A stretch of 64,000 nt of DNA, from NCBI GenBank assembly GCA_018831265.1, contig JAHJCO010000059.1, positions 76,708-140,707 of the forward strand, in the 5' to 3' direction. Shown here piece after piece: positions 3,056-48,393 of this stretch. This DNA is from Actinomycetota bacterium (GTDB taxonomy: Bacteria; Actinomycetota; Geothermincolia; Fen-727; Anoxymicrobiaceae). The notes under the pieces are model-generated. The model made no database searches and was not told where the DNA came from. It was given only the letters and a program-made list of their open reading frames with translations. The first letter of the stretch is position 1. Each line of letters begins with the position of its first letter. The position numbers and the translations under genes are program-made.

Positions 3056-3494
3056 AGCAGGTATTGATGAGCCACTCCAGGACGTCGGCGCCGGCCTCGG
3101 AGACGACGCCCGGGTAGGTCGCTAGCGGCAGGGGGGGCCCGGCGGGCGGGATCGCCTTGAGCCGTACCTTGCACGAGAACCGGCGGGAGAGGTCCATGAG
3201 GTCGGCCCTGGTCAGGTACCGACAGTAGGCCGAGGACCTGAACCAGGTCAGCCAGGGCACGATCTCTATGGTGACGGACCTGCCACCTATCTCCACGGCG
3301 ATCCTGGAGAACGGGGCCGCGGTCCCGGTAAGCAACCTCACCAGTGCGGAGCGCCCGGTGATCATCCTCTCGCCCTTCCTCTGCCCCCGCCTTACGAGCG
3401 CCCGGGCCCAGGCCGCGAGCAACCGCGACGGGCACACCGCTATCCCGGCCCTGGCAGAGCCGATCATCGCCGCCCGCTGGACACGCAAGTCCAA
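3030..3494 (-). CDS. Hypothetical protein (uncertain coding status)
   Basis: Only sizeable ORF in a 460-bp gap; no recognisable motifs; AGG/ATA-rich codon usage atypical for this genome. Confidence 0.2.
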   Translation of the reverse strand: MDLRVQRAAMIGSARAGIAVCPSRLLAAWARALVRRGQRKGERMITGRSALVRLLTGTAAPFSRIAVEIGGRSVTIEIVPWLTWFRSSAYCRYLTRADLMDLSRRFSCKVRLKAIPPAGPPLPLATYPGVVSEAGADVLEWLINTCFMDSRAGS

Positions 3495-3512
3495 GCACCT
3501 CCTCCCAGCAGA

Positions 3513-3597
3513 AGTGTAGCAAAAGGGTCAGGCACTTTTGCTACACTCTTGCCACAGGAACAGCACGTGCAAAAGGGTCAGGCACTTGTGCACATGA
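3513..3597. repeat. Two REP-like hairpins (stem ...GTAGCAAAAG / loop GGTCAGGCA / CTTTTGCTAC...)
   Basis: agtgtagcaaaag-ggtcaggca-cttttgctacact and gtgcaaaag-ggtcaggca-cttgtgcac; GTAG tetranucleotide 5' of stem. Confidence 0.8.
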
Positions 3598-3618
3598 TCA
3601 ACTGTCTGGGGTGAGAAG

Positions 3619-3981
3619 ATGGTCAGGATAATAGACCGGCCGGCCGAGGTTCTCGCGGAAGGGAACCCGCCCAAGAAGATCCTCGAGTTCGCCGGCCGGG
3701 TGAGCTCGGGTAGTAAGGATATCAGCATCGCGCTGATGAGGAGCCCGGGTGGCTGGACAGAGCCGGGACAGACGCCGGAGTTCGCAGAGTACTCGGTCGT
3801 CCTTGAAGGGATGCTGCGTGTCACCACCAGGGACGGCACTCATGACGTGCGCAAGGGACAGGCCGTGATCGTCGAGAGCGGCGAATGGGTCCAGTACGGT
3901 ACTCCGCTGCCGGAGGGTGCCGAGTACATCTCGGTATGCGTCCCCCCGTTTTCAGCCGATACAGTCCACCGCGACCCGTGA
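3619..3981 (+). CDS. Cupin-domain protein
   Basis: Small single-domain protein; two-His/Glu cupin-like beta-barrel pattern (TEPGQTPEFAEYSVVLEG...VIVESGEWVQY); flanked on both sides by REP hairpins. Confidence 0.55.
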   Translation: MVRIIDRPAEVLAEGNPPKKILEFAGRVSSGSKDISIALMRSPGGWTEPGQTPEFAEYSVVLEGMLRVTTRDGTHDVRKGQAVIVESGEWVQYGTPLPEGAEYISVCVPPFSADTVHRDP

Positions 3982-4035
3982 TGTAGCAGCAGTGTAGCAA
4001 AAGTAGCAAAAGGGTCAGGCACTTTTGCTACATCC
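3982..4035. repeat. REP-like hairpin(s), GTAGCAAAAG-GGTCAGGCA-CTTTTGCTAC
   Basis: tgtagcagcagtgtagcaaaagtagcaaaagggtcaggcacttttgctacat. Confidence 0.8.
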
Positions 4036-4045
4036 GGGTCTTTTC

Positions 4046-5998
4046 CTAGAAGAAGCGTACCGCGACCTGGGTGGAGAAGATCCAGGCGAAGGCGAGTCCC
4101 ATCAAAAGGGAGGATGAGGCGACCCCGTAGCCCCGGCGGCGGAAGAACAGCGTTAGCACCGAAGCCGGGATGAAAGCCACGAAGCCGATGACGGCGACCA
4201 CCGGCACCAGCGGGACCCTGGTGTGCGGCACAAGCCCTCCGATGAGCAGGAACGGGTTGAAGGCGAACGGGATGAAGGCGACGCCCAGACCAATGCCGCG
4301 CACCCCTGCCTCGGCCAGGACGTAGGTGACGCGTCTGCGCCGCGTCTCCAGGTCGGTCCAGCGGGGCAGCAGGAACGCGTGGAAGAAGTGACCTGATACG
4401 TACAGGTAAGCCGCCGTGACGCCCGCCAGGACCAGGAACCAGCCTATCGATATCGGGACACCCCGCGGCAGGAACAGCGCGTACGCCGTCGGCGAGTAGA
4501 GCAGGGCGAAGACCGCGAATGGGACCAGCCCGACGAACGCGACCGCCCCCGCCCCCAGGGTCTCGGGCTCTTCCTCGCCCCGCCCCCGCTTCATCCACGC
4601 GGATGGCCTGGGCCATGCGCTTGCCGGTGCCAGCTTCCATCGCCGCTCGAGCATGGCCAGCAGCACAAAGGCCGAGAGCATGACCAGCACCTGCCCCGCC
4701 GCTACGCCCGCAAGCACATCGGGGCCGAGTATCAGGGGTAGGGAAGAGAACGGGATGAAGGCGCCCAGCCCGAGCACGCCGACAAGAGGCAGCGCGGCAA
4801 GGGACGCGGCGAGATATACGAGGGTACAACCGAGCGCAACGATGCCGTAGTCCCGCTTGCGGTCCGGGGTCGGCTCAGGGGCCCACCTCTTACGGCCCTC
4901 ACCGAACGCGTGCCTGCCGGCGTACAGGCAGGCGAGCGCCACCAGCAGGAAGCCGAGCATGACCATCGCCTGGAAGAGGGCGCGCATTATGGGGGTGCGG
5001 GTCGCGGGCGCGGGCGCCTTCAGGTCGAAAGCCCGGAATATCCAGGAGTAGACCGCCGTCCAGACCGCGGGGCTGGTCATCTCGCTGAAGTGGGTGTCCT
5101 TAGTCACCACGAACTTACGGGCTGTGCCGTCCTCGAACGACCCGTAGGTACGACCCGGGACCACCCCGGGCAGACCCGCCGCCAGCGCTACCACCTTCTC
5201 CTGCTCCTCGACAGAGGTCAGCTCGTCGTTGGAGCCGATGACCAGAAGGAAGTTCGGCGGTCTGTCGGCGGTGATGGTGTCGGCGAAGTCCCTGTCGTCC
5301 ACGTCGGCCTCCGAGTGGACGTCGAAGGCATGGGAGACCGCCAGGTGCTTCCAGAGCCTGCCGATGAAGCCATCCGCGCCGCCGTACTGGCGCTCCATTG
5401 CGCTGCGGACGCTCGTCGAGCTGTAGACCGCGGCGACGGCCTTTATCTCCTCGTCAGGCTGGAGTATCCCGGCACGTGTCGATGTGACCCCACCGCGCGA
5501 GTGACCGGTGATCGCTATCCTGTCCGCGTCCACCCCCGGGAGCGAGCGTAGGTAGGTGACCGCCCCCAGGGCGTCCATGGCCTCCGAGTAGTTCTGGTCG
5601 GCGGCTCCACCGGTGCTGCCATGCCCCCGAAGGTCGATGTCGAGCACCATCACCCCGCGCCGTGCGAGCTCGCGGGCCGGCTCGAAGTAGGCCTCCTTGG
5701 ACTGGGTGAACCCGTGGCAGAAGATGACCGCCGGGGTCGGGCTCGCGACCGGGTCGTCGGGGGTGATGAGGAGCCCGCTCACCTTCCGGGCCGGTGACTC
5801 GAATCCCTCGGTGGAGATGCCCACCCGGCGGATGGAGACGTCCGGGAAGGTCAGCAGGGCGGCCCCGAGGATCCCAATCGCCGCGACGACGAGCCCGACG
5901 ACGAGCGAGACCATGGCCCGCTTCTTCAGCTTCGGAGCGGCCGCTCCTTTTCTCTGCGGTACCGCCGCGCACTCTTCCTTTGCCACATCATCCATCAA
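4046..5998 (-). CDS. Alpha/beta-hydrolase (dienelactone hydrolase/S9-like) fused to C-terminal polytopic membrane domain
   Basis: N-terminal TM anchor; 'VIFCHGF', nucleophile elbow 'GHSRGG'; C-terminal ~300 aa with ~8-9 hydrophobic helices. Confidence 0.7.
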   Translation of the reverse strand: MMDDVAKEECAAVPQRKGAAAPKLKKRAMVSLVVGLVVAAIGILGAALLTFPDVSIRRVGISTEGFESPARKVSGLLITPDDPVASPTPAVIFCHGFTQSKEAYFEPARELARRGVMVLDIDLRGHGSTGGAADQNYSEAMDALGAVTYLRSLPGVDADRIAITGHSRGGVTSTRAGILQPDEEIKAVAAVYSSTSVRSAMERQYGGADGFIGRLWKHLAVSHAFDVHSEADVDDRDFADTITADRPPNFLLVIGSNDELTSVEEQEKVVALAAGLPGVVPGRTYGSFEDGTARKFVVTKDTHFSEMTSPAVWTAVYSWIFRAFDLKAPAPATRTPIMRALFQAMVMLGFLLVALACLYAGRHAFGEGRKRWAPEPTPDRKRDYGIVALGCTLVYLAASLAALPLVGVLGLGAFIPFSSLPLILGPDVLAGVAAGQVLVMLSAFVLLAMLERRWKLAPASAWPRPSAWMKRGRGEEEPETLGAGAVAFVGLVPFAVFALLYSPTAYALFLPRGVPISIGWFLVLAGVTAAYLYVSGHFFHAFLLPRWTDLETRRRRVTYVLAEAGVRGIGLGVAFIPFAFNPFLLIGGLVPHTRVPLVPVVAVIGFVAFIPASVLTLFFRRRGYGVASSSLLMGLAFAWIFSTQVAVRFF

Positions 5999-6511: not shown

Positions 6512-6524
6512 CTCATCCTCCTGA

Positions 6525-6659
6525 CTAGAGTAGGGGTCAGGCACTATTCTATTCATTTCCCTGATAAGTCCGCCACCGGGGCCGTGACTTGACTGGTGCC
6601 TGACCCCTACTCTAGTCGACCCCTACTCTAGTCATGTGACTTGAATCCCGCCTGGCACC
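6525..6659. repeat. MITE/REP-like element with perfect 20-bp terminal inverted repeats (ctagagtaggggtcaggcac ... gtgcctgacccctactctag) plus partial duplicate
   Basis: Perfect TIRs at 6525-6544 and 6596-6615; shares GGGGTCAGGCAC core with other elements. Confidence 0.8.
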
Positions 6660-18079: not shown

Positions 18080-20728
18080 TCAGTCGCTGAAGCCACCGAT
18101 GGTCTCGGTGCCCGCGCCCCTGTCGTTCCAGTACATGGCGCGCTCGACCATTATCTTCTTGCCGGTGGAGGTGCAGTTGACCAGCACCGCCGCCCGCCCG
18201 CTGGCTATCTTGTCCGCCATGTTGTACGTCTTGCGCGAGTTGGCCGGTATTGAGTCGGTGAACGTCTGGTTGCCTGTCCCGGTGGCTGTCAGATAAGTGA
18301 TGGTTATGTTGACCGCGCTCCCGTTGGGGTTCTGCACCAGGGTCCAGGTCTCCCTGCCGTTCGATGTCTCGCCGTCCGGCAGGTAGAACGCCTGGTGGGG
18401 CGACGCCATCCCGATGGAGTCGTGGCACGCCTCGCCGGTGCCCTTGTCCCAGTACATGGCCCTCTCCGCGATGATGGGCTCGGTGCCGTGCACCTTGGTG
18501 GAGAGGTCCACCCCCGGCTTGACGTCGTTCACCCTGATGGTCTTGCGGGAGTTCGCCGGCATCTGGAAGACGTCCTGCGGGTCCGGGCCTTCGGTCGTCA
18601 TGTAGGTCACCGTCACGTCCACCGCGGTGCTGTTGGGGTTCTGGATCAGGACAAAGGTGGTGAAGCCCCACGCCGTGGTGCCCTCGGCCAGGTAGTAGTC
18701 GGTGGCCGGCGAGGTGGTCCCTATGGAGTCGTGCCCCTCGCGGCGCGAGTTGCGGTACATGGCGCGCTCAGGGATCACCGGCACGTCGGACGTCACCTTA
18801 ATCGATGCGTCCTTGGCGCCGATGTGTTCGGCCATGTTGAAGGTCTTACGCGTGCCCCCGTCCACCACCACGTCGAACTCCCGGGGGTCGGCCCCCTCTA
18901 TCATGTAGGTGATGGTGCAGTTGGCATCGGCGCTGTTGGGGTTCTGAATGAGCAGCCAGCACTCGAAGCCCCACTCCGATGAGCCTTCCGCCAGGTACCA
19001 GGTTGTGGCCGGCGCGGTCACCCCCACCGAGTTGTGGGACTCCTCGGCAACGGCTCCACCGTTTGTGCCAGCGCCGGCTCCACCGCCTGTCCACCTCATG
19101 GTGCGGTCAACCGCTATCATCTTTCCCTGGGCGCAGGACACCCTGGTGGAGAAGTCAGTGGCGCCCAGCACATCGGCCGGATTGATGGTGGTCTGGGAGT
19201 TGGCCGGCAGGTTGAAGTCCCCTCCGTCCACCGGGCCACCGGATGTCTGGTAGTCGACCGCGGCGGTGACCGCGGTGCTGTTGGGGTTCTGGATGGTTAT
19301 GTAGGTGGAGAACCCCCAGGCGGTGGTCCCCTCCGCCAGGTACCAGCTGTAGTAGTCGGTGGACATGTGCTGGGCGTACAGGTCGAGGTTGCCCACCCCG
19401 CTGTACTGCACCGGGAAAGCCATTATGGCGCCCCCGTACCCGTCCGGTATCATGTCCATCCAACCTGAGTCGTCCGCCACCCCGAATACCGCCTCCCCGT
19501 TGGTCTTCCAGCGCGCCAGGCCGCTGGAGGTGATGCTCTGCGCGTACCACTGGAGGCCCACCCGGCTGTCGTTCCAGGACACTATGGCCCCGCCGCTTCC
19601 GTCTCCACATATCTCCGGGTCTTCAATGTTCCAGTTCCCGGATACCAGCTGTACCCCTCCTGCCGTCCACTGCGCGCTTCCCGAGGAGTCAATGCGCTGG
19701 GCGTATACGGCCATCTTGGAGGGCAGCAGCCTTCCGTCCTCCCAGCTCACTATGGCCCCGCCGCTTCCGTCCGCCACTATCACCGGGTCGGACCCTGCGT
19801 GCAGCCCTACCCCCTGCGCGGTCCAGGCCGCCGCGCCCGCTGCTGTCACCCTCTGGGCACGAACATTCGAGCTGCCGACCGACCAGGACATGATGGCCCC
19901 GCCCCCCGAGTCCGGGATCATGTGCAGGTCATCGCAGTCGCCCAGGTTGCACATGAGCACGCCGTTGGCAGTCCATTTCATGTTGCCGCTGGAGTCCGCC
20001 TTCTGGCAGTAGACGTGGGTGTCGGCGCCGCTCCTCAGGTCGTCCCAGGAGAACACTGCCCCACCTGAGCCATCCGCCACCACGTTCGCGTAGCGCTGGG
20101 TCCCTGCCGCGGTGCAGACCGCCTTGCCCGCAGCTCCCCACCTGCGGGTGCCGCCGGAGTCGAGGCGCTGGGCGTATATATCGTCGGAAGCCCCGCGGGT
20201 ATCGCCCCAGGCGATTATCGCCCCACCGGAGCCATCAGTGGCTATGTCCCCGTTCAGCTGCTCGTTGGCCAGGTCGTTACTGACCAGGATACCGTTTGCC
20301 GCCCACTGGGCCACTCCGTTAGAGTTTATCCTCTGGGCATAGACGTGCTGGTTGAACAATGGACCGTCCGACCATATTATTACCGCTCCGCCGGAGCCGT
20401 CCGACACGATTGTGGGATACTCCTGCGTGCCTGCCGCGTTGCAGATGGGCACGCCGCTGGCTGCCCACTTCTTCGCCCCGCTCGCGTCTATGCGCTGTGC
20501 GTATATGTCGCTGTCGCCGGTGCGCATGTCGCCCCACACCATTATTGCGCCGCCTTGCCCGTCCGGGATCGTCTCAGGGTCCTCCTGGTCCCCGGCGGCG
20601 GTGCAGACCGCCTTGCCGTTGGTGCCCCAGCGCTGCACCGCGGCCATGGCGGAGGTTGCGGTGAGCAGGCACACCAGTAGTGCGGCCAGCGTCACGAAGA
20701 GAAGTGAACGGACGGTGAAGCGAGACAT
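18080..20728 (-). CDS. Secreted repeat protein: signal peptide, ~9 copies of a ~48-aa repeat (W..NG..VC.AAG.Q..P.IV.DGSGGAIV.W.D.R...DIYAQRI), then 4 'YLAEG' modules
   Basis: Start ATG at 20728 with AGGGGG RBS (track ORF extends to 20785); signal peptide MSRFTVRSLLFVTLAALLVCLLTATSAMA. Confidence 0.8.
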   Translation of the reverse strand: MSRFTVRSLLFVTLAALLVCLLTATSAMAAVQRWGTNGKAVCTAAGDQEDPETIPDGQGGAIMVWGDMRTGDSDIYAQRIDASGAKKWAASGVPICNAAGTQEYPTIVSDGSGGAVIIWSDGPLFNQHVYAQRINSNGVAQWAANGILVSNDLANEQLNGDIATDGSGGAIIAWGDTRGASDDIYAQRLDSGGTRRWGAAGKAVCTAAGTQRYANVVADGSGGAVFSWDDLRSGADTHVYCQKADSSGNMKWTANGVLMCNLGDCDDLHMIPDSGGGAIMSWSVGSSNVRAQRVTAAGAAAWTAQGVGLHAGSDPVIVADGSGGAIVSWEDGRLLPSKMAVYAQRIDSSGSAQWTAGGVQLVSGNWNIEDPEICGDGSGGAIVSWNDSRVGLQWYAQSITSSGLARWKTNGEAVFGVADDSGWMDMIPDGYGGAIMAFPVQYSGVGNLDLYAQHMSTDYYSWYLAEGTTAWGFSTYITIQNPNSTAVTAAVDYQTSGGPVDGGDFNLPANSQTTINPADVLGATDFSTRVSCAQGKMIAVDRTMRWTGGGAGAGTNGGAVAEESHNSVGVTAPATTWYLAEGSSEWGFECWLLIQNPNSADANCTITYMIEGADPREFDVVVDGGTRKTFNMAEHIGAKDASIKVTSDVPVIPERAMYRNSRREGHDSIGTTSPATDYYLAEGTTAWGFTTFVLIQNPNSTAVDVTVTYMTTEGPDPQDVFQMPANSRKTIRVNDVKPGVDLSTKVHGTEPIIAERAMYWDKGTGEACHDSIGMASPHQAFYLPDGETSNGRETWTLVQNPNGSAVNITITYLTATGTGNQTFTDSIPANSRKTYNMADKIASGRAAVLVNCTSTGKKIMVERAMYWNDRGAGTETIGGFSD

Positions 20729-20967
20729 CTTATACCCCCTGTTCGAAGCCTGCAGCCCTGATGGTGAATACATCACAACCGACATCTCCCCGTTTGTCTT
20801 CCTGACACAGCGATTCTACCCCTTTCCCTATCGATCTTCGCATCTTCATCACCAATTCCACCGCCTGCTCCGCCTCAGCCTATCACCTGGGACTTCCGGG
20901 GCGGGCGAGTAGGCATCAAGGTCATTGCACTTCAAATGAATTGAATCTGACCTGACCCCCGGTTGAG

Positions 20968-22224
20968 TCATTCCCAGGCGTCTGGGCGGGAGCGGATCTC
21001 GCCGCCCACGACCTCCTCGATCCCGTGATACAGGCCGGCGATTATCCCCTCGAGGTTCCGCAGGCGCTCGGAGAGCAGGTTGCGCGATACGGCGTTGAAC
21101 GCCTTCATCTCCTCGGCTATCAGCCCCGGTGTGGGTATCGGTGCCCCCCTCGGGCGCATCAGGAAAGAGGCAACCCGCAACGATGACGGCGGAGGCGGGC
21201 TCTCCCACGGTTTCAACGGGGGGATAAACAGGTGCGGGAAAGCGAGGGTCTGCGTTGGCATCGCCTCAGCGACCTCCATGAGCCCCATGAGCTTCTTGAG
21301 GGCGCTCAGCATCGCCCTGGGGTTGGAGGTCATCTTCGATGCCAGGGTATCCGCGAATAGGGTCTCGTTGTGCCCGGGGCCCTGGACGTTCATGTCGGCA
21401 AGCTCGGATTCTTCCGGCAGTGACTTCGGCTGCCCCGTCCAGATCGAGAAGGCCGTCGCGCCCCGGACCCTCTGGTAGTAGGTGAGCTGCTTCCATGGCA
21501 TGTACGGCTGGACGATTATCCCCAGCCAGAGCGGCGCCACAGGGATGACGAACAGTGGGAGCATCGCGACGAACGGGTTGTTGAGCGCTATCGCGACCGC
21601 CACGGGGAGCAGTAAGGCGACGAGCGTGACCAGAACCAGTGTCCTGGGCTTCAGGGCGATCGGTGCCTTCAGGCCGGTGTGCGCCGCGATGTGAGCCACC
21701 TGGTGGGCCATCACCACCTCGACCTCCGGGCCGCTCAGCTTCGCGTCAAGCATCTCCGGCGTGACTCCTACGGCGGGCCTGCCGCCCACCTCGAAGGTCA
21801 GCGCGTTCGCCGTCGGCATCCCGACCGGGACCACGTGCGGTGGCCTCACCCCCGCGGCGATGGCCGCCGCCTCAGCCGCCTCCTGGAACAGGTGTAGCCG
21901 GTGGCGGTCGTAGGTCGGGGTCCCGCGACTCAGTGAGCGGTACTGCTGGACCAGCGGTTTCAGGACGGCGAAGTAGTAAGCGGCGGGGAAGAGGATGGCC
22001 AGTATCCCAACGATGAGGAGTGGCTCGGCCACGACGGCCCAGCCTATGTTACTGTGCCCGTACCTTCCCGTGATCGAGCTGAGCCTGAACGCGTTGAACA
22101 CCTGGTAGCCGATGATGAGGAGTATCGGCACGAGTGGCAGCAGGGCCAGGCCGACGCGCAGCCGCGCCCTGTTCCTGTACTTCCTGAGGCTCTTCTCGAT
22201 CTGCGGCTCGAACTTCACCGGCAC
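20968..22224 (-). CDS. Membrane M48/M56-like peptidase homologue with degenerate HExxH (HQVAH)
   Basis: Several TM helices; 'VVMAHQVAHIAAH' in place of HExxH; downstream 'ETLFADTLAS' third-ligand-like region; paralog of 22254-23399. Confidence 0.5.
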   Translation of the reverse strand: MPVKFEPQIEKSLRKYRNRARLRVGLALLPLVPILLIIGYQVFNAFRLSSITGRYGHSNIGWAVVAEPLLIVGILAILFPAAYYFAVLKPLVQQYRSLSRGTPTYDRHRLHLFQEAAEAAAIAAGVRPPHVVPVGMPTANALTFEVGGRPAVGVTPEMLDAKLSGPEVEVVMAHQVAHIAAHTGLKAPIALKPRTLVLVTLVALLLPVAVAIALNNPFVAMLPLFVIPVAPLWLGIIVQPYMPWKQLTYYQRVRGATAFSIWTGQPKSLPEESELADMNVQGPGHNETLFADTLASKMTSNPRAMLSALKKLMGLMEVAEAMPTQTLAFPHLFIPPLKPWESPPPPSSLRVASFLMRPRGAPIPTPGLIAEEMKAFNAVSRNLLSERLRNLEGIIAGLYHGIEEVVGGEIRSRPDAWE

Positions 22225-23399: not shown

Positions 23400-23417
23400 G
23401 ATATGAGTCTAACAGTT

Positions 23418-23461
23418 TCGCATCGGGGTCAGACGCCGATGCGAATGGGGTCAGGCTGGGC
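23418..23461. repeat. REP-like hairpin, variant loop (TTCGCATCGG-GGTCAGAC-GCCGATGCGAA) plus GGGGTCAGGC half-site
   Basis: Identical hairpin at 31097-31125. Confidence 0.8.
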
Positions 23462-23573
23462 CTCCATCATGGTGGAGAGCCTCACCAGCGGCAAGGAAGT
23501 CATGTGCGAGAGGGCCATGTACTGGAACTCGAGGGGAGCGGGCACGGACACCATCGGAGGGTATGCGGAATGA
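23444..23573 (+). pseudogene. C-terminal remnant of a 'YLAEG'-module protein
   Basis: Encodes ...SGKEVMCERAMYWNSRGAGTDTIGGYAE*, matching the last ~35 aa of the paralogs (ERAMYWN..GAGTDTIGG); no upstream domain or start. Confidence 0.55.
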
Positions 23574-23745
23574 AAGAAAACCTCAGCACGTCTTGTTGCA
23601 CTCGATCCGGCCATAATGAAAGAAGACCTCAGCACGTCTTGTTGCGCTCTTCGAGTCCGATCGACCTGTTGTCACAGTGCAAGAAGATGTCTGAGGTATT
23701 GTTTCATTCATCGGTGAAAGAAATGGTCTGAGGTTTTCTTTCACT
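23571..23745. repeat. AT-rich palindromic repeat cluster, family 3 (GAAAGAANACCTCAGACCATTTCTTTC and variants)
   Basis: Direct and inverted copies; same family at 30019-30093 and 56091-56207. Confidence 0.7.
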
Positions 23746-26448: not shown

Positions 26449-26529
26449 GCTGCCTCCTTCCTCCGCCCCCCGGAAGGGGCTTTCGACCCACGGATGCCGC
26501 CAATACGCAATCTAGAAGATTATATATGC

Positions 26530-26822
26530 GGGGTCAGGCTCAATTCAATTTCAGCGATCAAGCCGCACGACCTGTATGGTGTGAATTGAATTGTGCCTGA
26601 CCCCTAGCCTAGTCAACTTGCGGGCCGCTCGAAGTATTCAATTTCAGCGATCAAGCCGCACGACCTGTATGGTGTGAATTGAATTGTGCCTGACCCCTAG
26701 CCTAGTCAACTTGCGGGCCGCTCGAAGTATTCAATTTCAGCGATCAAGCCGCCCGATCTGTATGGTGTGAATCGAATTGTGCCTGACCCCTAGCTGAGTC
26801 ACTTGTGGCCGCTCAAGGTATT
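26530..26822. repeat. Tandem array (~93-bp unit, ~3 copies) of a MITE-like element with GGGGTCAGGC(T/A)CAATTCAATT inverted arms
   Basis: Units starting ~26581, 26674, 26767 are near-identical, including the internal segment. Confidence 0.85.
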
Positions 26823-30018: not shown

Positions 30019-30093
30019 GGTGAAAAAAAACCTCTGAAAAAAAACCTCAGACCATTTCTTTCACCGAAAGAATACCTCAAACTGTTTTTCACC
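30019..30093. repeat. AT-rich palindromic repeat, family 3
   Basis: ggtgaaaaaaaacctctgaaaaaaaacctcagaccatttctttcaccgaaagaatacctcaaactgtttttcacc. Confidence 0.7.
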
Positions 30094-30222: not shown

Positions 30223-31155
30223 ATGGCGAGAGACTTCAAGGGCTGGTTCAACGAGACCCGCAGGGCGGAGCTGATGCTGATAGGCATCACCGTCATCTGG
30301 GGGCTTACCTTCGCGCTGGTCAAGCGGTCGCTGGACGACATAGCGCCGTTCACCTTCATGGCCTGGCGGTTCATGCTGGCCGCGGCGATCATGCTCGTCC
30401 TCTGCGCGCGGAAGTGGAAGGGCCTGGACCGCCGCATCCTGGTCGCCGGCCTGCTGCTGGGGGCGCTGCTGTACGGCTCCTACGCGTTCCAGACCTTCGG
30501 GCTGCAGTACACCTCCGCGGGCAACGCCGGCTTCATCACCGGCCTCTTCATAGTATTCACGCCGCTGCTCTCCGTGCTGTTCCTGAGGCACAGGCCCGGC
30601 GCCAAGTCCCTTCTGGCGGTGGGCATAGCGCTGTGCGGGCTGTGGGTGCTCTCCGTGCAACCGAACATGGGCATCAACAAGGGGGACGCGCTGGTACTGG
30701 CGTGCGCCTTCACCTACTCGGTGCACATCATCCTGCTGGACAGGTACGTGAAGGTGCACGACCTGGCGCTGCTCACCTTAATCCAGATGGTGGTGCTGGC
30801 GGTGGCCAACACCGGCTCGGGTCTGGTGTTCGAGGAGTTCATCCTCCCCCCCAACGCCTTCGTCTGGATGACGGTCATCATCTGCGGGGCGCTGGCCAGC
30901 GCGCTGGCGTTCTACGTGCAGGGGCACGCCCAGAAGGTGCTGACCCCGGTTCGGACCTCGATGGTGCTCATCATGGAGCCGGTCTTCTCCGTGGTGTTCG
31001 GCATCATCATCCTGGGGGAGTCGCTTTCCTGGCGGGGCGCCCTCGGCAGCGGGCTGATCTTCGCCGGGATGCTGCTTACCGAGCTGCCTGACGAAATTCG
31101 CATCGGGGTCAGACGCCGATGCGAAAAAGTCAATCCTTCAGAGCCCGGTAAATAG
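30223..31155 (+). CDS. DMT-superfamily (EamA) transporter
   Basis: 10 TM helices, two EamA repeats; last ~20 codons run into REP hairpin 31097-31125. Confidence 0.8.
   Translation: MARDFKGWFNETRRAELMLIGITVIWGLTFALVKRSLDDIAPFTFMAWRFMLAAAIMLVLCARKWKGLDRRILVAGLLLGALLYGSYAFQTFGLQYTSAGNAGFITGLFIVFTPLLSVLFLRHRPGAKSLLAVGIALCGLWVLSVQPNMGINKGDALVLACAFTYSVHIILLDRYVKVHDLALLTLIQMVVLAVANTGSGLVFEEFILPPNAFVWMTVIICGALASALAFYVQGHAQKVLTPVRTSMVLIMEPVFSVVFGIIILGESLSWRGALGSGLIFAGMLLTELPDEIRIGVRRRCEKVNPSEPGK
31097..31125. repeat. REP-like hairpin TTCGCATCGG-GGTCAGAC-GCCGATGCGAA
   Basis: Identical to 23418-23446; abuts the 3' end of the RAYT gene. Confidence 0.8.
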
Positions 31156-31861
31156 TCGCAGGATGGACACCGAGGTGCCCGGCCACTCCGGCGACGCTGA
31201 AGCCGCGATCTCTAATGGCACTCCTGATAACGTCGTTCCTCGCGCCGGCGTCCTTGGTGCCCTTGAGGAGTGAGTTCAGTATCAGCGCCTGGTCTTTCAT
31301 GCTGGAGGCTTCGTGAAGCCCCGCGAGAACGTACCCGGTGAATTCTTCACGCGCCCTGGAGGGATTGTCTGAGAAGCATCCGAGAACGAAAGAGGTCGTC
31401 AGGAAGTCGGGTTCAATACAGAGGCCGGCCGTGGCTGAGTAACTGCTCCACCTCCAGTTCTCCGGGGACCCAGCCATGCCTTCCTTGACTGGATTGAGAA
31501 AGATATAGCGGAACAAGGCAAACAGGTGACGCTCGTTCTCCACTAGCGGAGAAAGAAACCTGCCCTGAACGACATGTCCAATCCTCTTGTGCTTCCATGC
31601 GAAGTACCGGCAGTAGTTTCCGTTCAGCTGCTGCATTCCCTCAGAAAGGTTGGCCTCGGGCGTTTCGATCAGAATGTGATAGTGGTTTCCCATCAGGCAG
31701 TAAGCATGGCAGTTCCAACGGAAATCGCGGATCGTGCCAGCCAGTCCCTTGATGAACACGCGACGATCTCCGTTCGTCAGAAAGATCTTCTGTTTATCGT
31801 TCCCTCGGGACATGACGTGGTAGAAAGCCCCTGGGAACAGCTGTCGCGGCTGTCGCCCCAT
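31130..31861 (-). CDS. REP-associated tyrosine transposase (RAYT; IS200/IS605 Y1 HUH family) with C-terminal HTH
   Basis: HUH motif 'GNHYHILIE'; Y1 transposase fold length; C-terminal 'LGVHPATIYRALKD' HTH; flanked by palindromes (31097-31125 and gtgtgcaagttgcacac at ~31890). Confidence 0.85.
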   Translation of the reverse strand: MGRQPRQLFPGAFYHVMSRGNDKQKIFLTNGDRRVFIKGLAGTIRDFRWNCHAYCLMGNHYHILIETPEANLSEGMQQLNGNYCRYFAWKHKRIGHVVQGRFLSPLVENERHLFALFRYIFLNPVKEGMAGSPENWRWSSYSATAGLCIEPDFLTTSFVLGCFSDNPSRAREEFTGYVLAGLHEASSMKDQALILNSLLKGTKDAGARNDVIRSAIRDRGFSVAGVAGHLGVHPATIYRALKD

Positions 31862-31973
31862 GAAGCAATTCTAGCAAGCAAAACAAGCGTGTGCAAGTTG
31901 CACACCTGAAAAGGTCACGAATAATACTCCCGCCGTGTTTTTTTCGCAACGGCGTCTGGCACCATTGCGAAAG

Positions 31974-37000: not shown

Positions 37001-37220
37001 CGCGGATCTCTGTGCGATGCTCGCAACCGGCTGCTTCCCGTTCACCATCAACCCGAACCTCGACCTGACCTACAGCGATTTCGTCTTCGCGTACGGCGAT
37101 GTCGCCGATGCCGCCAGGCAGGCGAGAGTCAAGGTAGATAACCTCGCCAACGAGGCGCTGCTGCCTTACCGCGAGCTGCGCGCCCGCGAGCTGGACGAGG
37201 AACAGGAAGAGGGCGAATGA
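34071..37220 (+). CDS. addB: AddB/RexB-like PD-(D/E)XK nuclease subunit (no Walker A)
   Basis: GTG start with GGGAG RBS; C-terminal RecB-type nuclease motif 'FEVCDYKSG'; ~1050 aa; immediately upstream of and overlapping the AddA-like gene. Confidence 0.7.
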   Translation: MNFQSNTLVEAIASLCAEEPLKPKIIIAPSNRAGNQWLERVAMSGRPVLNAGSRTLRGLALELSAPLLVERGLQLVGGIRAQVLMDRAFARISPKEPYLSRLEPGPGLVRTLLGAVRDLRLAGLDADAVDERAFEVRSKGAEVKALLEAFESVLAEGGLTDYAGCLRLAVERVTSDRGLPLDSLVAIPADLEERLAGLERSLWSAMPESNRRILEVDLPGDPSTDSSRRYMLSFALHPQTAPDPGPDGGGVRMFRAVGEVNEVREVFRRVVEEGLPFDDVEVLYTEPATYLPLLFELASRQAADGSDELPVTFLEGVPTRYSRPGRALAGWLEWVRGGDLPQGTLVRMVHDGLLEIPAVEGGDLSFARLGAILRSVAIGAGRERYLASLDSEARALTSQIVGLDEAEEEGRDARRRIGLSERLEGLGALRELIGGLLEVVPSTGGQAEALSSASLFLERYARHSGKFDEYSRVILLDSVAEIERCLQDGEVAGFEPWSWLDEVISSISVEGSGPAPGRLHTAPVDKGGHSGRGHTFIVGFDEARFPAAGRQDPVLLDGERERLSDDLLTGEARLTRELEQLMLLFARLRGEVTLSYCCRSLIDDRELFPSPVLLSAYRVLEKRDGDQQDLNAYCGDPVSFAPASPESAIDTTEWWLSLACGRTDRLVPTGLVVASFGHLGRGMRAREMRESPEFTEYDGYVPEAASECDPAREGARPLSASALEELARCPLEYFLHRVLRIDPLEEYEIDPNEWLDARQVGHFLHGCFRIFLERLDERGERPSRDAHLAELRRLFDDELAYWRRVVPPHNEASYKAQARMLERAACIFLTEEELHCVDRRPAYFEVSVGRMPDLPGRRGNEIDTAEPVLVSLPKGMVFRAHGQMDRVDELPGAPEGRRFEVCDYKSGGAGRYDVNDPFACGRHVQNILYTLLLQSRLDELFPGARVEGFSYYFPSLYGRGERVGWTMDELEAGETVLADLCAMLATGCFPFTINPNLDLTYSDFVFAYGDVADAARQARVKVDNLANEALLPYRELRARELDEEQEEGE

Positions 37221-40200
37221 CCGTGCAGCCCGCGAGCCAGCCACCCCCGGACCAGGACCAGCGCGACCTGATCGTCAGCGCGCTCGACCGCAACGTTGTG
37301 GTCGAAGCCGCGGCCGGAACTGGGAAGACCACCAGCATGGTGGACCGCATGGTGGCGCTGCTTCGCACGGGTGCGTGCGACGATATCCGGAGGATGGCGG
37401 CGGTGACGTTTACCCGGAAGGCCGCCTCCGAGCTGCGCGACCGCTTCAGACTTGCCCTGGAGAAGGCCGTGCGCGGGGCCGCCGGCGACGAGAGGGGGCG
37501 CCTTGCCGGGGCGCTGGACAGCATAGACCAGTGCTTCGTGGGTACGATCCACTCGTTCTGCGGCCGGCTGCTCCGCGAGCGGCCCATAGAGGCGGGGGTG
37601 GACCTCGCCTTCGAGGAGCTCGACGAGGACGCCGATATGCGCCTGCGCCAGGAGGCATGGGCGGCATATGCCGAGTCGGTGATAGGGCTCGGCCCGGGGA
37701 GCGTGATCGACGAGCTCGACGACCTCAACCTGGACCTGTCCGACCTCGCCGACACCTTCTACAGGTTCGCCGAGTACCCGGACGTGGACGACTGGCCCCT
37801 GCCTCCCGAGAGCGAAATGCTCGAGGACCTCGACGAGGCGGCAGTAGCGGTGAAGCGTTTCACGGAGCGCATGAGGAAGCTCGCCGACAGGCTGCCCAGG
37901 GAGTGCGGCTCGGACCGGCTGATGCCGCGCTACTCGAAGATGCCGAGGGTGGTATCGCACTACGAGGACCTGAGCGAACGCGCTTCCATGCTCGAGCTCA
38001 TCGACATGTTCTTCGACAAGCGCTCGGGCGCGGTGCTAAAGGAGTGGGTGCAGAAGGGCGGGTTTACCCAGGAGGAGGCGCGCTCGGAGCGCGAGGCCTG
38101 GGACGCTTTCCGCGAGGAGTTCGCCGCGCCGCTCGCCGAGGCGTGGCGGGAGCTTCGCTACCGCACGGTCATGAAGGTGATAACCGAGGCCGGGGCCGTC
38201 TACGATCGCATGAGGGCGGAGCGCGGCCAGCTCGACTTCCAGGACCTGCTGATGAAGGCGGCCGGCCTGCTCAAGGGGAGCCCTCACGTGCGCTCCTACT
38301 TCGCAGGGCGCTACTCGCACCTGCTGGTCGACGAGTTCCAGGACACCGATCCCATACAGGCGGAGGTCATGCTGCTGCTTACCGCTACCGACCCCCGCCA
38401 GGACGACTGGCGCCTGTGCGTGCCCCGCGGCGGGTCGCTGTTCGTTGTGGGGGACCCCAAGCAGTCGATATACCGGTTCCGCAGGGCAGACATCGTTACC
38501 TACAACAGGGTGAAGCGGATGATCCTGGAGGGCGACGGCGGGAAGGGCCGCGGCATCGAGGTCCGGCTGTTCGCCAACTTCCGCACGTCGGCGGCCGTCA
38601 TCCAGTGGATAGACGAAGTCTTCGCGCCCAAGGGTGACTGCACGGACAAGTCCGGCAGGCTGGTTTGCTTCCCGGAGGCGGCCTCCGAGCAGTCTCCGGC
38701 CTACGTCCGGCTGGAGGCCGGCCGGAGCGAGTCCCTTCAGGGCGAGCTGGGAGGAGTGTTCCAGTTGACCATACCCTCCGACGAGATCCTGCTCACCTCC
38801 CACCTCGTGGAGGGCGGACCGCCGACCGCGCAGGAGGCCGCGGTCCTGGCGCGCCGGTACACCAGGAGCGAGCTTGCGGCGTCCTACGAGGCGGACCTCA
38901 TCGCCCGCTACATCCGGTGGGCGATAGACGATCGCGTCACCGTTCCCCGAAGCGAGAAGGAGCTCGAGGATATCCACAGGCGCATGCCCTCGTGCGAGGA
39001 CCCGGCCGCGCTTCGGGCCGAGGACTTCCTGATCATCACGCGAAACAAGACCCACCTGAGCACCTACGGCCAGGCACTCCAGAGGTACGGCATCCCGCAC
39101 CGGGTGACGGGGGGCACTGCCCTGAACGAGGTGGAGGAGCTCCGGCTGCTGCTGACCTGCCTCCGTGCGGTGGACAGGGTCGATGATCCCGTGGCGCTGG
39201 TCGGGGCACTGCGGAGCGAGCTGTTCGGCATCAGTGACGCGGCGCTATACCGGTTCAGGAGGAACGGCGGCCGATTCAACTACAACGGCCCGGTTCCCGA
39301 GGGGCTGCCCCCCGGGGACGAGGAGGCCATCACCGACGCCTTCGACAGGCTGCGCCGGTACCGCGGCTGGGTGAAGACCATGCCACCGCTGGCCGCCTTC
39401 GAGAAGGTCGTCTCGGACCTGGGGCTGATGGTGCTGGCCGCGACCCGCGACGGCGGAGACGTCCAGGCGGGCAGCCTCGGCAAGGCGCTCGAGTTGCTCA
39501 GGGGTGACCAGCGCGCGCACTGGAGCACCTCCCACCTGGTCGATTTCCTCGCCGACCTGGTCGAGGGCGAGTTCAGCTACGACGGGGTGTCGGCACGGTC
39601 ACATGAGGTCGGGGCGGTGAGGGTGATGAACCTCCACAAGGCCAAGGGGCTGGAGTCCACGGTGGTGTTCCTCGCCGACGGCTCCGGCGAGCCCAGGTCG
39701 GGCCCGGAGATCGTCATCGACCGCGGCGGCGACCGGACGATCGGCTACATCGGAGTGTTCGGCCCGAGGTGGGGCGCCTGGTACAGGCCCCTGCTGGCGG
39801 CGCCGGGCGGCTGGGCGGACCGCCAGGCGGTCGAGAAGGAGTTCGAGGCCGCCGAGAGGCTGAGGTTGCGCTACGTGGCGGCCACCAGGGCGGGCTCGGC
39901 GATGATCGTGTGCGAGCGCGAGGACGGCAGGGCCAACGGCTCCAATCCCTGGAAGTATTTCAGGGATCACCTCGCCGGGGTGCCCGACCTGCCTGACCCG
40001 GGCCCGAGGAGCGCACCATCACGGGAGGCGCTCGACATCTCGGTGGAGGACGTGACGAAGGCTTCAGAGGAGGCGGCCGGCAGGATGCGGCGCGCAGAAG
40101 GTCCCACCTACGCGAGGCTCGCGGCCAAAGAGTACGCGCTCCGGGGAAAAGATTTTGCAAAAGGGTCAGGCACTTTTGCACCATCAACCACGGGCGGGCC

Positions 40201-40684
40201 GGAGTATGGCATCAACTGGGGCACCGCCATGCACATGCTGCTGGAGCTGGCTATGAGCCGGCCGGGCTTCGATGTCGAGGCCTGGGCGGAGAGGGTGCTG
40301 GGGGAGAACGAGATCGATCCGGGTGAGACGCCGCGGGCGGTGGAGACCGTCCGGGCGGTCACCGGATCGGCGTTGTGGGAAAGAGCCCTTGCCTCCGACC
40401 TGTGCCTGACGGAGGTCCCGTTCCACATGCTCCTCGGGGATGCGGACATCCCCACCACGATGAACGGGGCCATGGACCTGGCTTTCCGCGAGGAGGGGGG
40501 TTGGGTCATAGTGGACTACAAGACCGACAGGATAAGCGCATCGAGGAGCGAGCGGGCCCTGGCGGACGAGTACGCCCCGCAGCTCGAGCTGTACGGCCGG
40601 GCCTGGGCGGGGTGCACCGGCGAGACCGTCAAGGAGACCGGCCTGTTCTTCGTGGACAACCGTACATACCACAGGATCAGATGA
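37217..40684 (+). CDS. addA: AddA/RecB-like UvrD-family helicase with C-terminal PD-(D/E)XK nuclease
   Basis: Walker A 'AAGTGKTT', 'TFTRKAASELRDR'; C-terminal 'GWVIVDYKTDRI'. Confidence 0.85.
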   Translation: MTVQPASQPPPDQDQRDLIVSALDRNVVVEAAAGTGKTTSMVDRMVALLRTGACDDIRRMAAVTFTRKAASELRDRFRLALEKAVRGAAGDERGRLAGALDSIDQCFVGTIHSFCGRLLRERPIEAGVDLAFEELDEDADMRLRQEAWAAYAESVIGLGPGSVIDELDDLNLDLSDLADTFYRFAEYPDVDDWPLPPESEMLEDLDEAAVAVKRFTERMRKLADRLPRECGSDRLMPRYSKMPRVVSHYEDLSERASMLELIDMFFDKRSGAVLKEWVQKGGFTQEEARSEREAWDAFREEFAAPLAEAWRELRYRTVMKVITEAGAVYDRMRAERGQLDFQDLLMKAAGLLKGSPHVRSYFAGRYSHLLVDEFQDTDPIQAEVMLLLTATDPRQDDWRLCVPRGGSLFVVGDPKQSIYRFRRADIVTYNRVKRMILEGDGGKGRGIEVRLFANFRTSAAVIQWIDEVFAPKGDCTDKSGRLVCFPEAASEQSPAYVRLEAGRSESLQGELGGVFQLTIPSDEILLTSHLVEGGPPTAQEAAVLARRYTRSELAASYEADLIARYIRWAIDDRVTVPRSEKELEDIHRRMPSCEDPAALRAEDFLIITRNKTHLSTYGQALQRYGIPHRVTGGTALNEVEELRLLLTCLRAVDRVDDPVALVGALRSELFGISDAALYRFRRNGGRFNYNGPVPEGLPPGDEEAITDAFDRLRRYRGWVKTMPPLAAFEKVVSDLGLMVLAATRDGGDVQAGSLGKALELLRGDQRAHWSTSHLVDFLADLVEGEFSYDGVSARSHEVGAVRVMNLHKAKGLESTVVFLADGSGEPRSGPEIVIDRGGDRTIGYIGVFGPRWGAWYRPLLAAPGGWADRQAVEKEFEAAERLRLRYVAATRAGSAMIVCEREDGRANGSNPWKYFRDHLAGVPDLPDPGPRSAPSREALDISVEDVTKASEEAAGRMRRAEGPTYARLAAKEYALRGKDFAKGSGTFAPSTTGGPEYGINWGTAMHMLLELAMSRPGFDVEAWAERVLGENEIDPGETPRAVETVRAVTGSALWERALASDLCLTEVPFHMLLGDADIPTTMNGAMDLAFREEGGWVIVDYKTDRISASRSERALADEYAPQLELYGRAWAGCTGETVKETGLFFVDNRTYHRIR
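40156..40180. repeat. REP hairpin (TGCAAAAG-GGTCAGGCA-CTTTTGCA) embedded in frame in the AddA-like CDS
   Basis: Encodes ...DFAKGSGTFAP... in the linker before the nuclease domain. Confidence 0.75.
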
Positions 40685-41514: not shown

Positions 41515-41521
41515 GCTTCCC

Positions 41522-43204: not shown

Positions 43205-43212
43205 CTAGGATA

Positions 43213-43260
43213 GGGGTCAGGCACCATTCAAGTCATTTGACTTGAATGGTGCCTGACCCC
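43213..43260. repeat. Perfect 48-bp palindrome (GGGGTCAGGCACCATTCAAGTCA tt TGACTTGAATGGTGCCTGACCCC) between convergent genes
   Basis: 23-bp perfect arms; sits between the stops of 41522-43204 (+) and 43321-44544 (-). Confidence 0.85.
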
Positions 43261-43320
43261 GGGTCTAGTCACGCGCGGGGCTGAGAGCCCCGCCTCAAAG
43301 CCCCGCCTCGACAGCCCTCT

Positions 43321-44544: not shown

Positions 44545-44546
44545 GG

Positions 44547-45857: not shown

Positions 45858-45865
45858 GCACACCT

Positions 45866-45985
45866 CCGGGGTCAAACCTGGTTCTTTGCATTTCTTGCAT
45901 TTGGGGTCAAACCTGAGATCTTGCATACCCCTGACGACTGCAACAAGAACGTAAGAAACGCAGAATCTCAGGTTTGACCCCTAGA
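45866..45985. repeat. MITE-like element, family 4: 17-bp perfect inverted repeats GGGGTCAAACCTGAGAT ... ATCTCAGGTTTGACCCC plus extra half-copy
   Basis: IRs at ~45902-45918 and 45966-45982; half copy at ~45868. Confidence 0.75.
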
Positions 45986-46079
45986 TTATGTCACAGCCCT
46001 GTCAGGGCCGCTCCGCGCGCCCTGCCGTGGGTGTACAATCGACGTGCAGGCGATCATCGAGTGCCGGGGTTGGCGTATT

Positions 46080-46535: not shown

Positions 46536-46599
46536 AGGGAGACCGGCGCCCTTGACGGAACATATTTCCAACGGGCAGTGGCTTGCAAAGGGGGTAGGA

Positions 46600-47535: not shown

Positions 47536-47608
47536 CCGTAGCGCGACAGGAAAGAAAAGGCCCCCGGCGTCCTCGCCGGGGGCCTTGCCTCGTGTGTCGA
47601 TCTGAGTT

Positions 47609-48328: not shown

Positions 48329-48360
48329 GCGCTCCCCCCTTGGAGTCGGTTACCCCTACG

Positions 48361-48393
48361 ATGTAATAAAAGGGTCAGGCCCTTTTATTACAT
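48361..48393. repeat. REP hairpin ATGTAATAAAAG-GGTCAGGCC-CTTTTATTACAT
   Basis: Loop conserved, stem differs from the other copies. Confidence 0.8.

Follow-up and report, generated by a model that had tools for sequence, protein, structure and literature searches.

Results

Class-1 hairpins in the window

The 64,000-nt stretch of contig JAHJCO010000059.1 analysed here (the window) carries a family of short hairpins with the core AAAAG-GGTCAGGCA-CTTTT, referred to as class 1, and a gene encoding a REP-associated tyrosine transposase (RAYT; REP, repetitive extragenic palindrome). A first-pass annotation made from the sequence alone had listed six class-1 copies and two hairpins of a second loop subclass (GGTCAGAC) at about 23418–23446 and 31097–31125. 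We have now found all of them at these sites, the class-1 copies in numbers beyond shuffle expectation and the two GGTCAGAC-type hairpins at 23417–23445 and 31097–31125. The Pfam matches in the window, which include DUF5719, LytR_cpsA_psr and an AddAB/AdnAB-like nuclease pair, together with a GC content of 65%, indicate that the host belongs to the Actinomycetota. Positions 40102–48076 are 94% identical to a contig (locus L038) of the metagenome-assembled genome (MAG) JAZDFZ01 ("Actinomycetota bacterium"), an orthologous locus thus being available for 8 kb of the window only. The class-1 hairpins are the following:

3513–3547, plus strand: class-1 hairpin AGTGTAGCAAAAG-GGTCAGGCA-CTTTTGCTACACT with a 13-bp stem; −13.9 kcal/mol, z = −7.4; 59 bits with the covariance model
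3564/3567–3596, plus strand: imperfect class-1 hairpin in which CTTGT replaces CTTTT, with one A.G mismatch; 48 bits
4003–4031, plus strand: class-1 hairpin, 55 bits with the covariance model; the element including arm duplications spans 3982–4031
40156–40180, plus strand: intragenic class-1 hairpin; 51.5 bits with the covariance model
48360–48394, strand ambiguous (listed as plus): class-1 variant with loop base C (GGTCAGGCC); −14.1 kcal/mol, z = −10.4
50274–50302, minus strand: class-1 hairpin with TAAAG instead of AAAAG; found by the window search, folding and the covariance model

Three of the six copies contain the exact 19-mer AAAAGGGTCAGGCACTTTT, and the remaining three differ from it at one position. 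A search with up to three mismatches returned these six copies in the window and no match in 100 dinucleotide-preserving shuffles. The octamer GGTCAGGC occurs 24 times in the window against 4.9 expected (the highest count in a shuffle was 12), and 17 of the 28 GGTCAG[GA]C sites are intergenic, which is an enrichment of ∼15-fold given an intergenic share of ∼9.5% of the window, as taken from a crude gene map. Chance is therefore excluded as the origin of the hairpin family. Folded as single-stranded DNA, the class-1 copies reached −6.7 to −14.1 kcal/mol, with z scores of −3.6 to −10.4 in five of the six; the imperfect copy (3562–3598) folded weakly (z = −1.85). A covariance model built from 54 copies (described below) recovered the six window copies and no seventh; since the six belong to its training set, their own match is by construction and the information lies in the absence of a further copy.

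The contexts of the copies are diverse. The left-arm TAG (3517–3519) of hairpin 3513–3547 terminates the open reading frame (ORF) 3229–3519, which has no Pfam match and may not be a genuine gene. The 3′ edge of hairpin 3564–3596 lies 23 nt before the ATG of a cupin gene at 3619, and hairpin 4003–4031, with partial copies of its left arm (TGTAGCA, TGTAGCAAAAG) ahead of it, is located between the convergent cupin (3619–3981) and hydrolase (4046–5998) genes. Hairpin 48360–48394 sits between two minus-strand genes; it is a nearly perfect palindrome of 35 nt, in which GGTCAGGCC leads to a longer stem, of 15 bp, with TCAGG as its loop, and its strand is therefore ambiguous. Hairpin 50274–50302 is found 12 nt downstream of tRNA-Arg(CCT) (50314–50390), on the same strand. 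Hairpin 40156–40180 lies in frame within the AddA/AdnB-like helicase-nuclease ORF 37217–40684, where it codes for FAKGSGTFA, and is kept in the 94%-identical locus L038. Its site is an indel-rich linker, hypervariable in length among 15 homologues and short or absent in homologues, which is flanked by the conserved blocks AKEYAL and GEHG.EWGT.

Distribution of the core and covariation of the stems

The exact 19-mer was present at 56 loci in one scan of 185,579 species genomes. JAZDFZ01 contains ∼30 exact 19-mers with the stems tgtagc, tgtgc and tgttgc. Multiple copies are also present, with the stems atgtga/tcacat, in two Candidatus Aveggerthella species and a further Coriobacteriia MAG and, with the stems attcacc/ggtgaat, in the Actinomycetes MAG nzgw108. 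Distant lineages thus share an identical core, and their outer stems are specific to the lineage yet complementary.

To quantify the pairing, we used 54 copies from four lineages, chosen without selecting for pairing. Paired cells made up 89.3% of the stem, compared with 70.2% in shuffles (none of 500 reached the observed value), sliding the partner column lowered the pairing to 33–51%, and 8 of the 13 stem pairs had changed on both sides; much of this signal stems from differences between lineages, so that the independent events are fewer than the cells, and the counts are inflated by shared descent within lineages. The differing but complementary stems proposed in the first-pass annotation were thereby confirmed, and the compensatory changes whose lack would have spoken against them are abundant. 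The core is invariant across the 54 copies and the flanks diverge. Single-sided changes of the G.U type are rare in the stems, and nothing therefore points specifically to RNA pairing. The 19-nt mini-hairpin AAAAG-GGTCAGGCA-CTTTT is exact even between genomes whose RAYTs share only 30–40% identity and, in Campylobacterota and Gammaproteobacteria too, is found beside RAYT genes. Where hairpin arms are duplicated, the duplications stop at GGGTCAG edges in the window (3982–4012 and 6606–6635) and in L013, L029 and L062.

A RAYT gene between two hairpins

Neither the RAYT gene at 31130–31861, nor the third GGTCAGAC-subclass hairpin (31942–31972), nor the second repeat class with the core appears in the first-pass annotation. 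A tblastn search with the RAYT proteins of L032 and L018 (see below) matched the window itself at 31136–31861 on the minus strand. The gene and its flanking hairpins are:

31130–31861, minus strand: RAYT/TIRYT gene (243 aa) with the Y1 HUH nuclease core (H60-Y-H62, Y119, WRWSS) and a C-terminal helix-turn-helix (HTH)
31097–31125, plus strand: downstream hairpin TTCGCATCGG-GGTCAGACG-CCGATGCGAA; −14.4 kcal/mol, z = −6.9
31942–31972, minus strand: upstream hairpin TTTCGCAATGG-TGCCAGACG-CCGTTGCGAAA; −9.3 kcal/mol, z = −4.0

The protein matches PF01797 (Pfam Y1_Tnp) and, with 69.5 bits (E 2.7e-19; curated cutoff 80), the NCBIfam model NF047646 "REP-associated tyrosine transposase"; its sequence match to the Escherichia coli TnpArep structure 4ER8 is weak. 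The HUH histidines, the tyrosine and WxWSS are invariant in an alignment of 34 homologues, and all of them are present in the window protein. Its AlphaFold model (AF2) has a predicted local distance difference test (pLDDT) score of 88.6, and the closest structure is 4ER8_A, the complex of TnpArep with a REP hairpin (E 1.8e-8, target-normalised template modelling score 0.76), followed by the TnpA transposases of IS608 and ISDra2. The last 35 residues are modelled as a helix-turn-helix, and weak matches to HTH_38, HTH_23 and HTH_8 cover residues 210–242. The GC content of the gene is ∼54% compared with 65% in the window. A gene caller based on third-codon-position GC (GC3) overlooked it, which indicates a codon usage atypical for the host; judged from its sequence, the gene is apparently intact.

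Hairpin 31097–31125 lies 5 nt past the RAYT stop codon and overlaps the 3′ end of the EamA ORF 30223–31155. It contains GGGGTCAG, and its core reads CTGACC on the RAYT sense strand, which is the usual downstream polarity. Hairpin 31942–31972, located 80 nt before the RAYT ATG, belongs to the same stem family as 31097–31125 and differs from it by compensatory changes. Its degenerate loop matches GGTCAGACG at seven of nine positions and TGCCTGACC equally well, and no polarity can therefore be assigned to it.

Two further features were observed in the region preceding the gene. At ∼31886–31906, after the upstream hairpin and before the start codon of the RAYT gene, the perfect palindrome GTGTGCAA-C-TTGCACAC resembles a class-1 stem without the core; it may be either an operator bound by the HTH domain or what is left of a hairpin. 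The 40 nt before the RAYT ATG (31862–31900 in the window; also L057, L060, L062 and L146–L148) are conserved among the paralogues as ..TTGCTTG..TAGAAT/TAGTAT..ATG, in which the −10-like hexamer ends ∼7 nt before the ATG; this suggests a leaderless transcript.

Association of the core with RAYT genes in relatives and metagenomes

RAYT-like genes flanked by terminal inverted repeats (TIRs), and not by GTAG REPs, were described by Di Nocera et al. 2013, who coined the terms TIRtrons and TIRYTs (PMC3733652). Many TIRs share the motif GGGGWSAS; some are self-complementary and some overlap gene ends (PMC3733652). TIRYTs correspond to TnpAY1 subclass 2.1 of Quentin et al. 2018, with the flank consensus GGGG[AT][CG]A[CG] and long proteins carrying a C-terminal Bac_DnaA_C, HTH_23 or HTH_28-like domain (PMC6006769). 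The core GGGGTCAG of the window matches the published GGGGWSAS motif exactly.

In L032 (Aveggerthella) and L018 (nzgw108), two inverted class-1 hairpins ∼0.9 kb apart enclose an ORF of 248 aa with the motifs NH(V/Y)H and RYI..NP, matched by Pfam Y1_Tnp ("Transposase IS200 like"). Inverted class-1 hairpins also flank the RAYTs in L057, L060 and L146. These three assemblies share the synteny amine oxidase–RAYT–TMEM175, and the hairpins around their paralogues P0005, P0010 and P0011 carry the stems GTGTAGC, GTGC and TTGC; an orthologue of these genes outside the 64 kb is therefore the probable partner of the class-1 hairpins in the window. The RAYT stop codon TGA is placed inside the hairpin loop in L018, L057, L060 and L146, the loop of P0005, P0010 and P0011 reading ...GCC-TGA-CCC. 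In Desulfuromonas (L058) and Bipolaricaulota (L059), the core starts plain terminal inverted repeats, with the stop codon inside the core.

The window protein has 1,573 relatives at E ≤ 1e-5, which are 240–300 aa long and named RayT in several sources. A metagenome scan with the protein alignment yielded 80 loci, 65 of which had enough flanking sequence to be assessed. GGG[AT][CG]A was found upstream in 61 of the 65, mostly as GGGGTCAGGTC at −45 to −55, the inverted core was found at or after the stop codon in 55, and both sides were occupied in 53; in 24 of the 65 the TGA stop is embedded within CCTGACCC. By our own arithmetic, the chance expectation of GGGTCAG in 200 nt is ∼0.01. Among the genomes with the 19-mer outside the three multi-copy lineages, 3 of 19 have a RAYT homologue within 8 kb (L005, L024 and L028). 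A hairpin around the core was not seen in the 80 metagenomic loci, where hairpin scores equal the control and conservation ends at GGGG. Embedding of the core in a hairpin is therefore a lineage-specific feature, restricted to particular lineages.

Variant arrangements were also noted. In L062, L147 and L148 (P0006, P0004 and P0009, respectively), the TTCGCA arms are repeated in direct orientation and the inner stem measures only 5 bp, which is nearer to the IS200/IS605 arrangement. In L063–L065 (P0016), a palindromic core variant, GGGGCC(A/T)GGCCCC, has TTGTTGC direct repeats at its sides and forms three tandem units upstream of the gene.

Other repeats in the window

A second, TIR-type repeat class with the same core (unit TGACTAGnnTAGGGGTCAGGCACnATTCAAnTCA) is represented by about ten copies in the window; here the core starts an inverted repeat and is not placed in a loop. 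These repeats and the remaining GGTCAGAC-type hairpin are:

23417–23445 (element to 23456), plus strand: GGTCAGAC-type hairpin identical to 31097–31125
6522–6555, plus strand; 6585–6618, minus strand; partial duplicate 6619–6655: TIR-type repeats TGACTAGAGTAGGGGTCAGGCAC(n)ATTC..TCA (repeat finder)
20937–20970, minus strand: degenerate TIR-type repeat (GGGGGTCAGGTCAGATTCAATTCA; repeat finder)
26520–26556, plus strand; 26582–26615, 26675–26708 and 26768–26801, minus strand: TIR-type cluster 26520–26821
43202–43271 (70 nt), no strand given: REPIN-like inverted dimer of the TIR type with arms GGGGTCAGGCACCATTCAAGTCA; −33.7 kcal/mol, z = −12
60271–60304, minus strand: TIR-type repeat TGACTGAGGAAGGGGTCAGGCGGGATTCAAGTCA (repeat finder)

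A solitary GGGGTCAGGC core abuts hairpin 23417–23445 within 23417–23456. The repeats at 6522–6655 occupy a divergent promoter region, and their single units fold weakly. The 26520–26821 cluster lies upstream of an SBP_bac_3 gene; its minus-strand copies are contained in three tandem 93-nt units, two of which are identical, and the plus-strand copy forms an inverted pair with the nearest minus-strand copy. The dimer 43202–43271 lies between convergent genes and is absent from the orthologous site in L038, which has other sequence in its place.

A third, unrelated-looking hairpin family, GTGAAAG(A/T)3-TGGT(C/T)TGAGGT-(A/T)3CTTTCAC with the loop TGGTCTGAGGT, also has A/T-rich stems, a conserved 11-nt loop and intergenic clusters:

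23714–23744, 30021–30093, 56092–56120, 56145–56175 and 56178–56206: hairpins of the third family
23571–23599 and 23617–23645: half copies of the third family

No RAYT partner was linked to the TGGTCTGAGGT-loop family among 145 fetched loci, which contained one extra copy (L030). Opposite window position 43304, L038 has a 42-bp insertion with TGGTCTGAG, the core of this third family, which is absent from the window; after the 43202–43271 dimer, this is the second small presence/absence difference found in that intergenic region.

A unit of 88 nt resembling a miniature inverted-repeat transposable element is located at 45903–45990, in the divergent region between ORF 44547–45926 (minus strand) and the next plus-strand gene. 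It has 17-bp inverted repeats (GGGGTCAAACCTGAGAT) at its ends, which resemble the GGGGTCAA variant found upstream of some RAYT homologues, and it is kept in L038. Four large ORFs (11–2584, 18080–20785 on the minus strand, 50911–53784 and 60329–61921) contain internal repeats with a period of ∼300–310 nt and 60–78% identity within and between the ORFs, two of which match DUF5719. A homologous fragment of these repeats is found in the intergenic region 23470–23560, beside the hairpin at 23417.

Discussion

Hairpins as probable substrates of RAYT-type transposases

The hairpins of the window are very probably REP-like non-autonomous repeats of RAYT-family single-strand DNA transposases of the TIRYT/TnpAY1 subclass 2.1 type. 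The 9-nt "loop", together with the preceding G(s), is the GGGGWSAS end motif (GGGGTCAG) of these transposase units. The loop is thus conserved mainly because it is the terminal motif of the unit, in which several lineages also place the transposase stop codon, and its conservation is consequently no evidence for a function at the RNA level. The first-pass annotation had taken the conservation of loop and pairing together as selection on structure, and the part of this argument that concerns the loop is corrected accordingly. Among its suggestions for the role of the hairpins, recognition by a RAYT is strongly supported by the gene between its GGTCAGAC-type hairpins, by the class-1 hairpins around paralogous RAYTs in related genomes and by the end motif, whereas a terminator or RNA motif is not supported, given the consensus scan, the Rfam search and the contexts described below.

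By analogy with the biochemistry of IS200/IS605 and of TnpArep from E. coli, S. maltophilia and Marinomonas, the substrate of the HUH/Tyr enzyme would be the folded single strand of the element, bound probably at the replication fork, and the unpaired core would be read along with the helix. The enzyme would then cut and rejoin the strand, spreading or rearranging copies in trans, and such events could account for the single copies, the inverted dimers and tandem arrays, the duplicated arms and the occasional copy that lies in frame within a gene. There is probably one RAYT paralogue for each stem class, and the class-1 enzyme is probably the orthologue of P0005/P0010/P0011 located outside the window. 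Secondary effects on transcripts, as known from REPs, are possible and would not define the family. The arm duplications ending at GGGTCAG edges are a hint of breakage next to the core, which slippage explains equally well.

Several points weigh against this assignment. That the enzyme would bind, cut or move the hairpins is deduced from homology, and the NF047646 score of the window protein is under the curated cutoff. The upstream hairpin of the window RAYT has a degenerate loop of ambiguous polarity, and the hairpins beside the gene are of the GGTCAGAC subclass and not of class 1, the partner gene of which is found only in related genomes. In the homologue loci the core is mostly a plain terminal repeat, and folding may not be needed for recognition. 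In the P0004/P0006/P0009 clade (L147, L062 and L148 among its loci) the flanking copies are direct, not inverted. Finally, the single clear presence/absence difference (43202–43271 against L038) resembles replacement and not a clean insertion.

Other explanations

A more far-reaching form of the transposase explanation is conceivable, although we would not expect it to hold: the TIRYT end motif may have been captured into a hairpin loop in Actinomycetota/Coriobacteriia, creating a distinct REP class whose enzyme, like a rolling-circle Rep, would recognise the 9-nt loop instead of a 5′ tag and might cut inside this loop or at its edge. The exact conservation of the mini-hairpin and the arm duplications at GGGTCAG edges are compatible with such capture.

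It is unlikely that the hairpins are primarily RNA elements, i.e. factor-independent terminators or stabilisers of 3′ ends, and that their link with RAYTs is incidental. Copies do occur at 3′ ends (4003–4031 and 43202–43271 between convergent genes, 50274–50302 after a tRNA), and of the copies between co-directional genes, 18 have the core on the sense strand and 8 on the antisense strand (two-sided binomial p ∼0.08), which is only suggestive; REPs in general are reported to act on mRNA (PMC3733652). However, the stems are A/T-rich, and a scan of the window with the intrinsic terminator consensus (G/C-rich stem with a direct T-tract) returned no hairpin of the family, although it did return a canonical terminator at 47557–47586. 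No copy fits the stem-plus-T-tract consensus, and there is no Rfam match: only the tRNA exceeded the gathering threshold in the window, and the best hit to 3400–4100 was a miRNA model with 18 bits against a threshold of 69 (E 0.73). The occurrence of copies in divergent promoter regions, antisense to genes and in frame within an ORF also argues against RNA elements, as does pairing almost without G.U-type single changes, and a terminator would not need a 9-nt loop conserved across phyla.

We consider it very improbable that the core is an operator or another double-strand site for a regulator, for instance the HTH of the RAYT-like protein acting as a repressor, with the copies forming a regulon. 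The C-terminal HTH, the copies just upstream of genes (3564–3596, cupin; 26520–26821, ABC-transporter binding protein) and the core-less, stem-like palindrome in the RAYT promoter region (∼31886–31906) would fit such a site, but the core is asymmetric and single and the palindromic arms are variable, which is the reverse of a dimeric operator. Moreover, many copies lie between convergent genes or within an ORF, the neighbouring genes have no common function, and the strictly conserved HUH and Tyr catalytic residues favour a nuclease over a pure repressor. It is equally improbable that the copies are remnants of an element now extinct, or arose by local duplication or gene conversion, and interact with no protein any longer: degenerate copies (3564–3596, 20937–20970 and the loop of 31942–31972) and slippage-type events (partial arm duplications, tandem units) do exist, but the RAYT ORF has kept every catalytic residue and is intact, all 54 copies have an invariant core despite diverging flanks, two 93-nt units are 100% identical and hence recently duplicated, and the stem pairing has been maintained by compensatory change.

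Some likenesses to known motifs were tried and rejected. A sigma-54 promoter (GGCAC..TTGC) has, by inspection, a spacing of 2 nt rather than 5. For the TGACTAG...ATTCAA repeats, a sigma-70/MerR-type promoter was discarded as its −10 candidate lacks the final T and the consensus scan was negative; it is further ruled out by the finding that the unit forms a palindrome between convergent genes. Mimicry of the tRNA D-loop/T-loop, of helix 8 of signal recognition particle (SRP) RNA or of a CsrA site was dropped, since the other core variants (GGTCAGAC and GGTCAGGT) do not show these likenesses.

Assignment of the hairpins to RAYT-type transposases would explain a large part of the intergenic repeats in this uncultured lineage of actinobacteria and in its gut Eggerthellaceae relatives, and it cautions against labelling these hairpins terminators, riboswitch-like motifs or operators. 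It also offers natural enzyme/substrate pairs for TnpAY1 subclass 2.1/TIRYT, with several stem classes around one core, and shows that amplified hairpins can accompany a subclass reported without REP-like structures. The in-frame copy, located in a repair nuclease, adds to the cases in which protein linkers tolerate such repeats.

Comparison with known systems

A close parallel is that with the TIRtrons/TIRYTs. The RAYT-like protein is similarly long (240–300 aa there, 243 aa here) and combines an HUH/Tyr core with a C-terminal HTH; inverted repeats starting with GGGGWSAS bound the gene and at times overlap its 3′ end; and dispersed repeats occur as singlets, dimers and clusters, some of them self-complementary, just as moderately abundant TIR families form singlets, dimers and groups (PMC3733652). 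At the window gene, the downstream copy agrees with the flank consensus GGGG[AT][CG]A[CG], and upstream the stems match and the core is degenerate; the full consensus is found at the paralogues in L018, L032, L057, L060 and L146 and at 53 of the 65 metagenomic homologues. Dispersed repeats, which are optional in the published description, are present as a further identical copy and as the class-1 and TIR-type copies in the window. The differences concern the form of the repeat and the hosts. Here the motif is the loop of an 8–15-bp hairpin built by extra outer sequence, and several stem classes surround one core in a single genome, whereas at the 65 typical homologue loci the element starts at GGGG and does not fold; the hosts here are uncultured Actinomycetota and Coriobacteriia. 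According to Quentin et al. 2018, no REP-like structures adjoin subclass 2.1 genes (PMC6006769), in contrast to the amplified hairpins found here, and Bertels et al. 2017 found highly amplified flanking 16-mers to be limited to RAYT groups 2 and 3 (PMC5581495). With regard to the single-copy, vertically inherited state of RAYTs (one copy per type and genome, at positions syntenic among relatives; Bertels et al. 2017), the analysis covered the shared neighbourhood of P0005, P0010 and P0011 in three assemblies and, for the host of the window, 64 kb of its genome. No biochemical study of TnpAY1 subclass 2.1/TIRYT was found in the literature searched.

With the REP/RAYT systems (REPtrons and REPINs; E. 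coli TnpArep 4ER8, Pseudomonas, Stenotrophomonas), the elements share a homologous Y1 HUH enzyme, a gene located between inverted copies of a short, genome-amplified extragenic palindrome, and inverted dimers, here 43202–43271. Intragenic copies in repair genes are another common trait, as REPs inside genes, often genes of replication and repair, were recorded by Di Nocera et al. (PMC3733652), and loop bases can be recognition determinants, as some TnpArep enzymes depend on single loop bases (Corneloup et al. 2021; PMC8266576). A canonical REP, as quoted in PMC6006769, has a G/C-rich basal stem of 7–20 bp and a loop of 2–5 nt. REPs thus have conserved G/C-rich stems, whereas the hairpins described here combine A/T-rich variable stems (AAAAG/CTTTT plus outer pairs) with a conserved loop of 9 nt; only the variant 48360–48394 has a 5-nt loop. 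Neither a GTAG/GTGG tag 0–2 nt 5′ of the hairpin nor a GGAG tag 5′ of the stem was found; GTAG occurs only within the stem of the "tgtagc" subset and is absent from the tgtgc, tgtga and ttcacc stems. The protein, in addition, bears an HTH domain.

The IS200/IS605 elements (IS608, ISDra2) have the same TnpA fold and catalytic motifs, and their subterminal hairpins are likewise recognised as single-stranded DNA. However, the end hairpins of these elements are both on one strand and the whole element is mobile in multiple copies, whereas the flanks described here are usually inverted, the gene stays at a fixed syntenic site (L057, L060 and L146) and the amplified part consists of the short repeats, not of the gene.

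Rickettsia palindromic elements are short palindromic repeats that lie in frame in protein-coding genes and add a peptide to a tolerant region of the protein. No transposase dedicated to them is known. Their sequences are unrelated to the window repeats, of which only one copy is intragenic.

The elements of the window are therefore a further instance of the TIRtron/REPtron kind in an uncultured actinobacterium, and their mechanism is not new. The hairpin form of these repeats is unusual, though not unprecedented.

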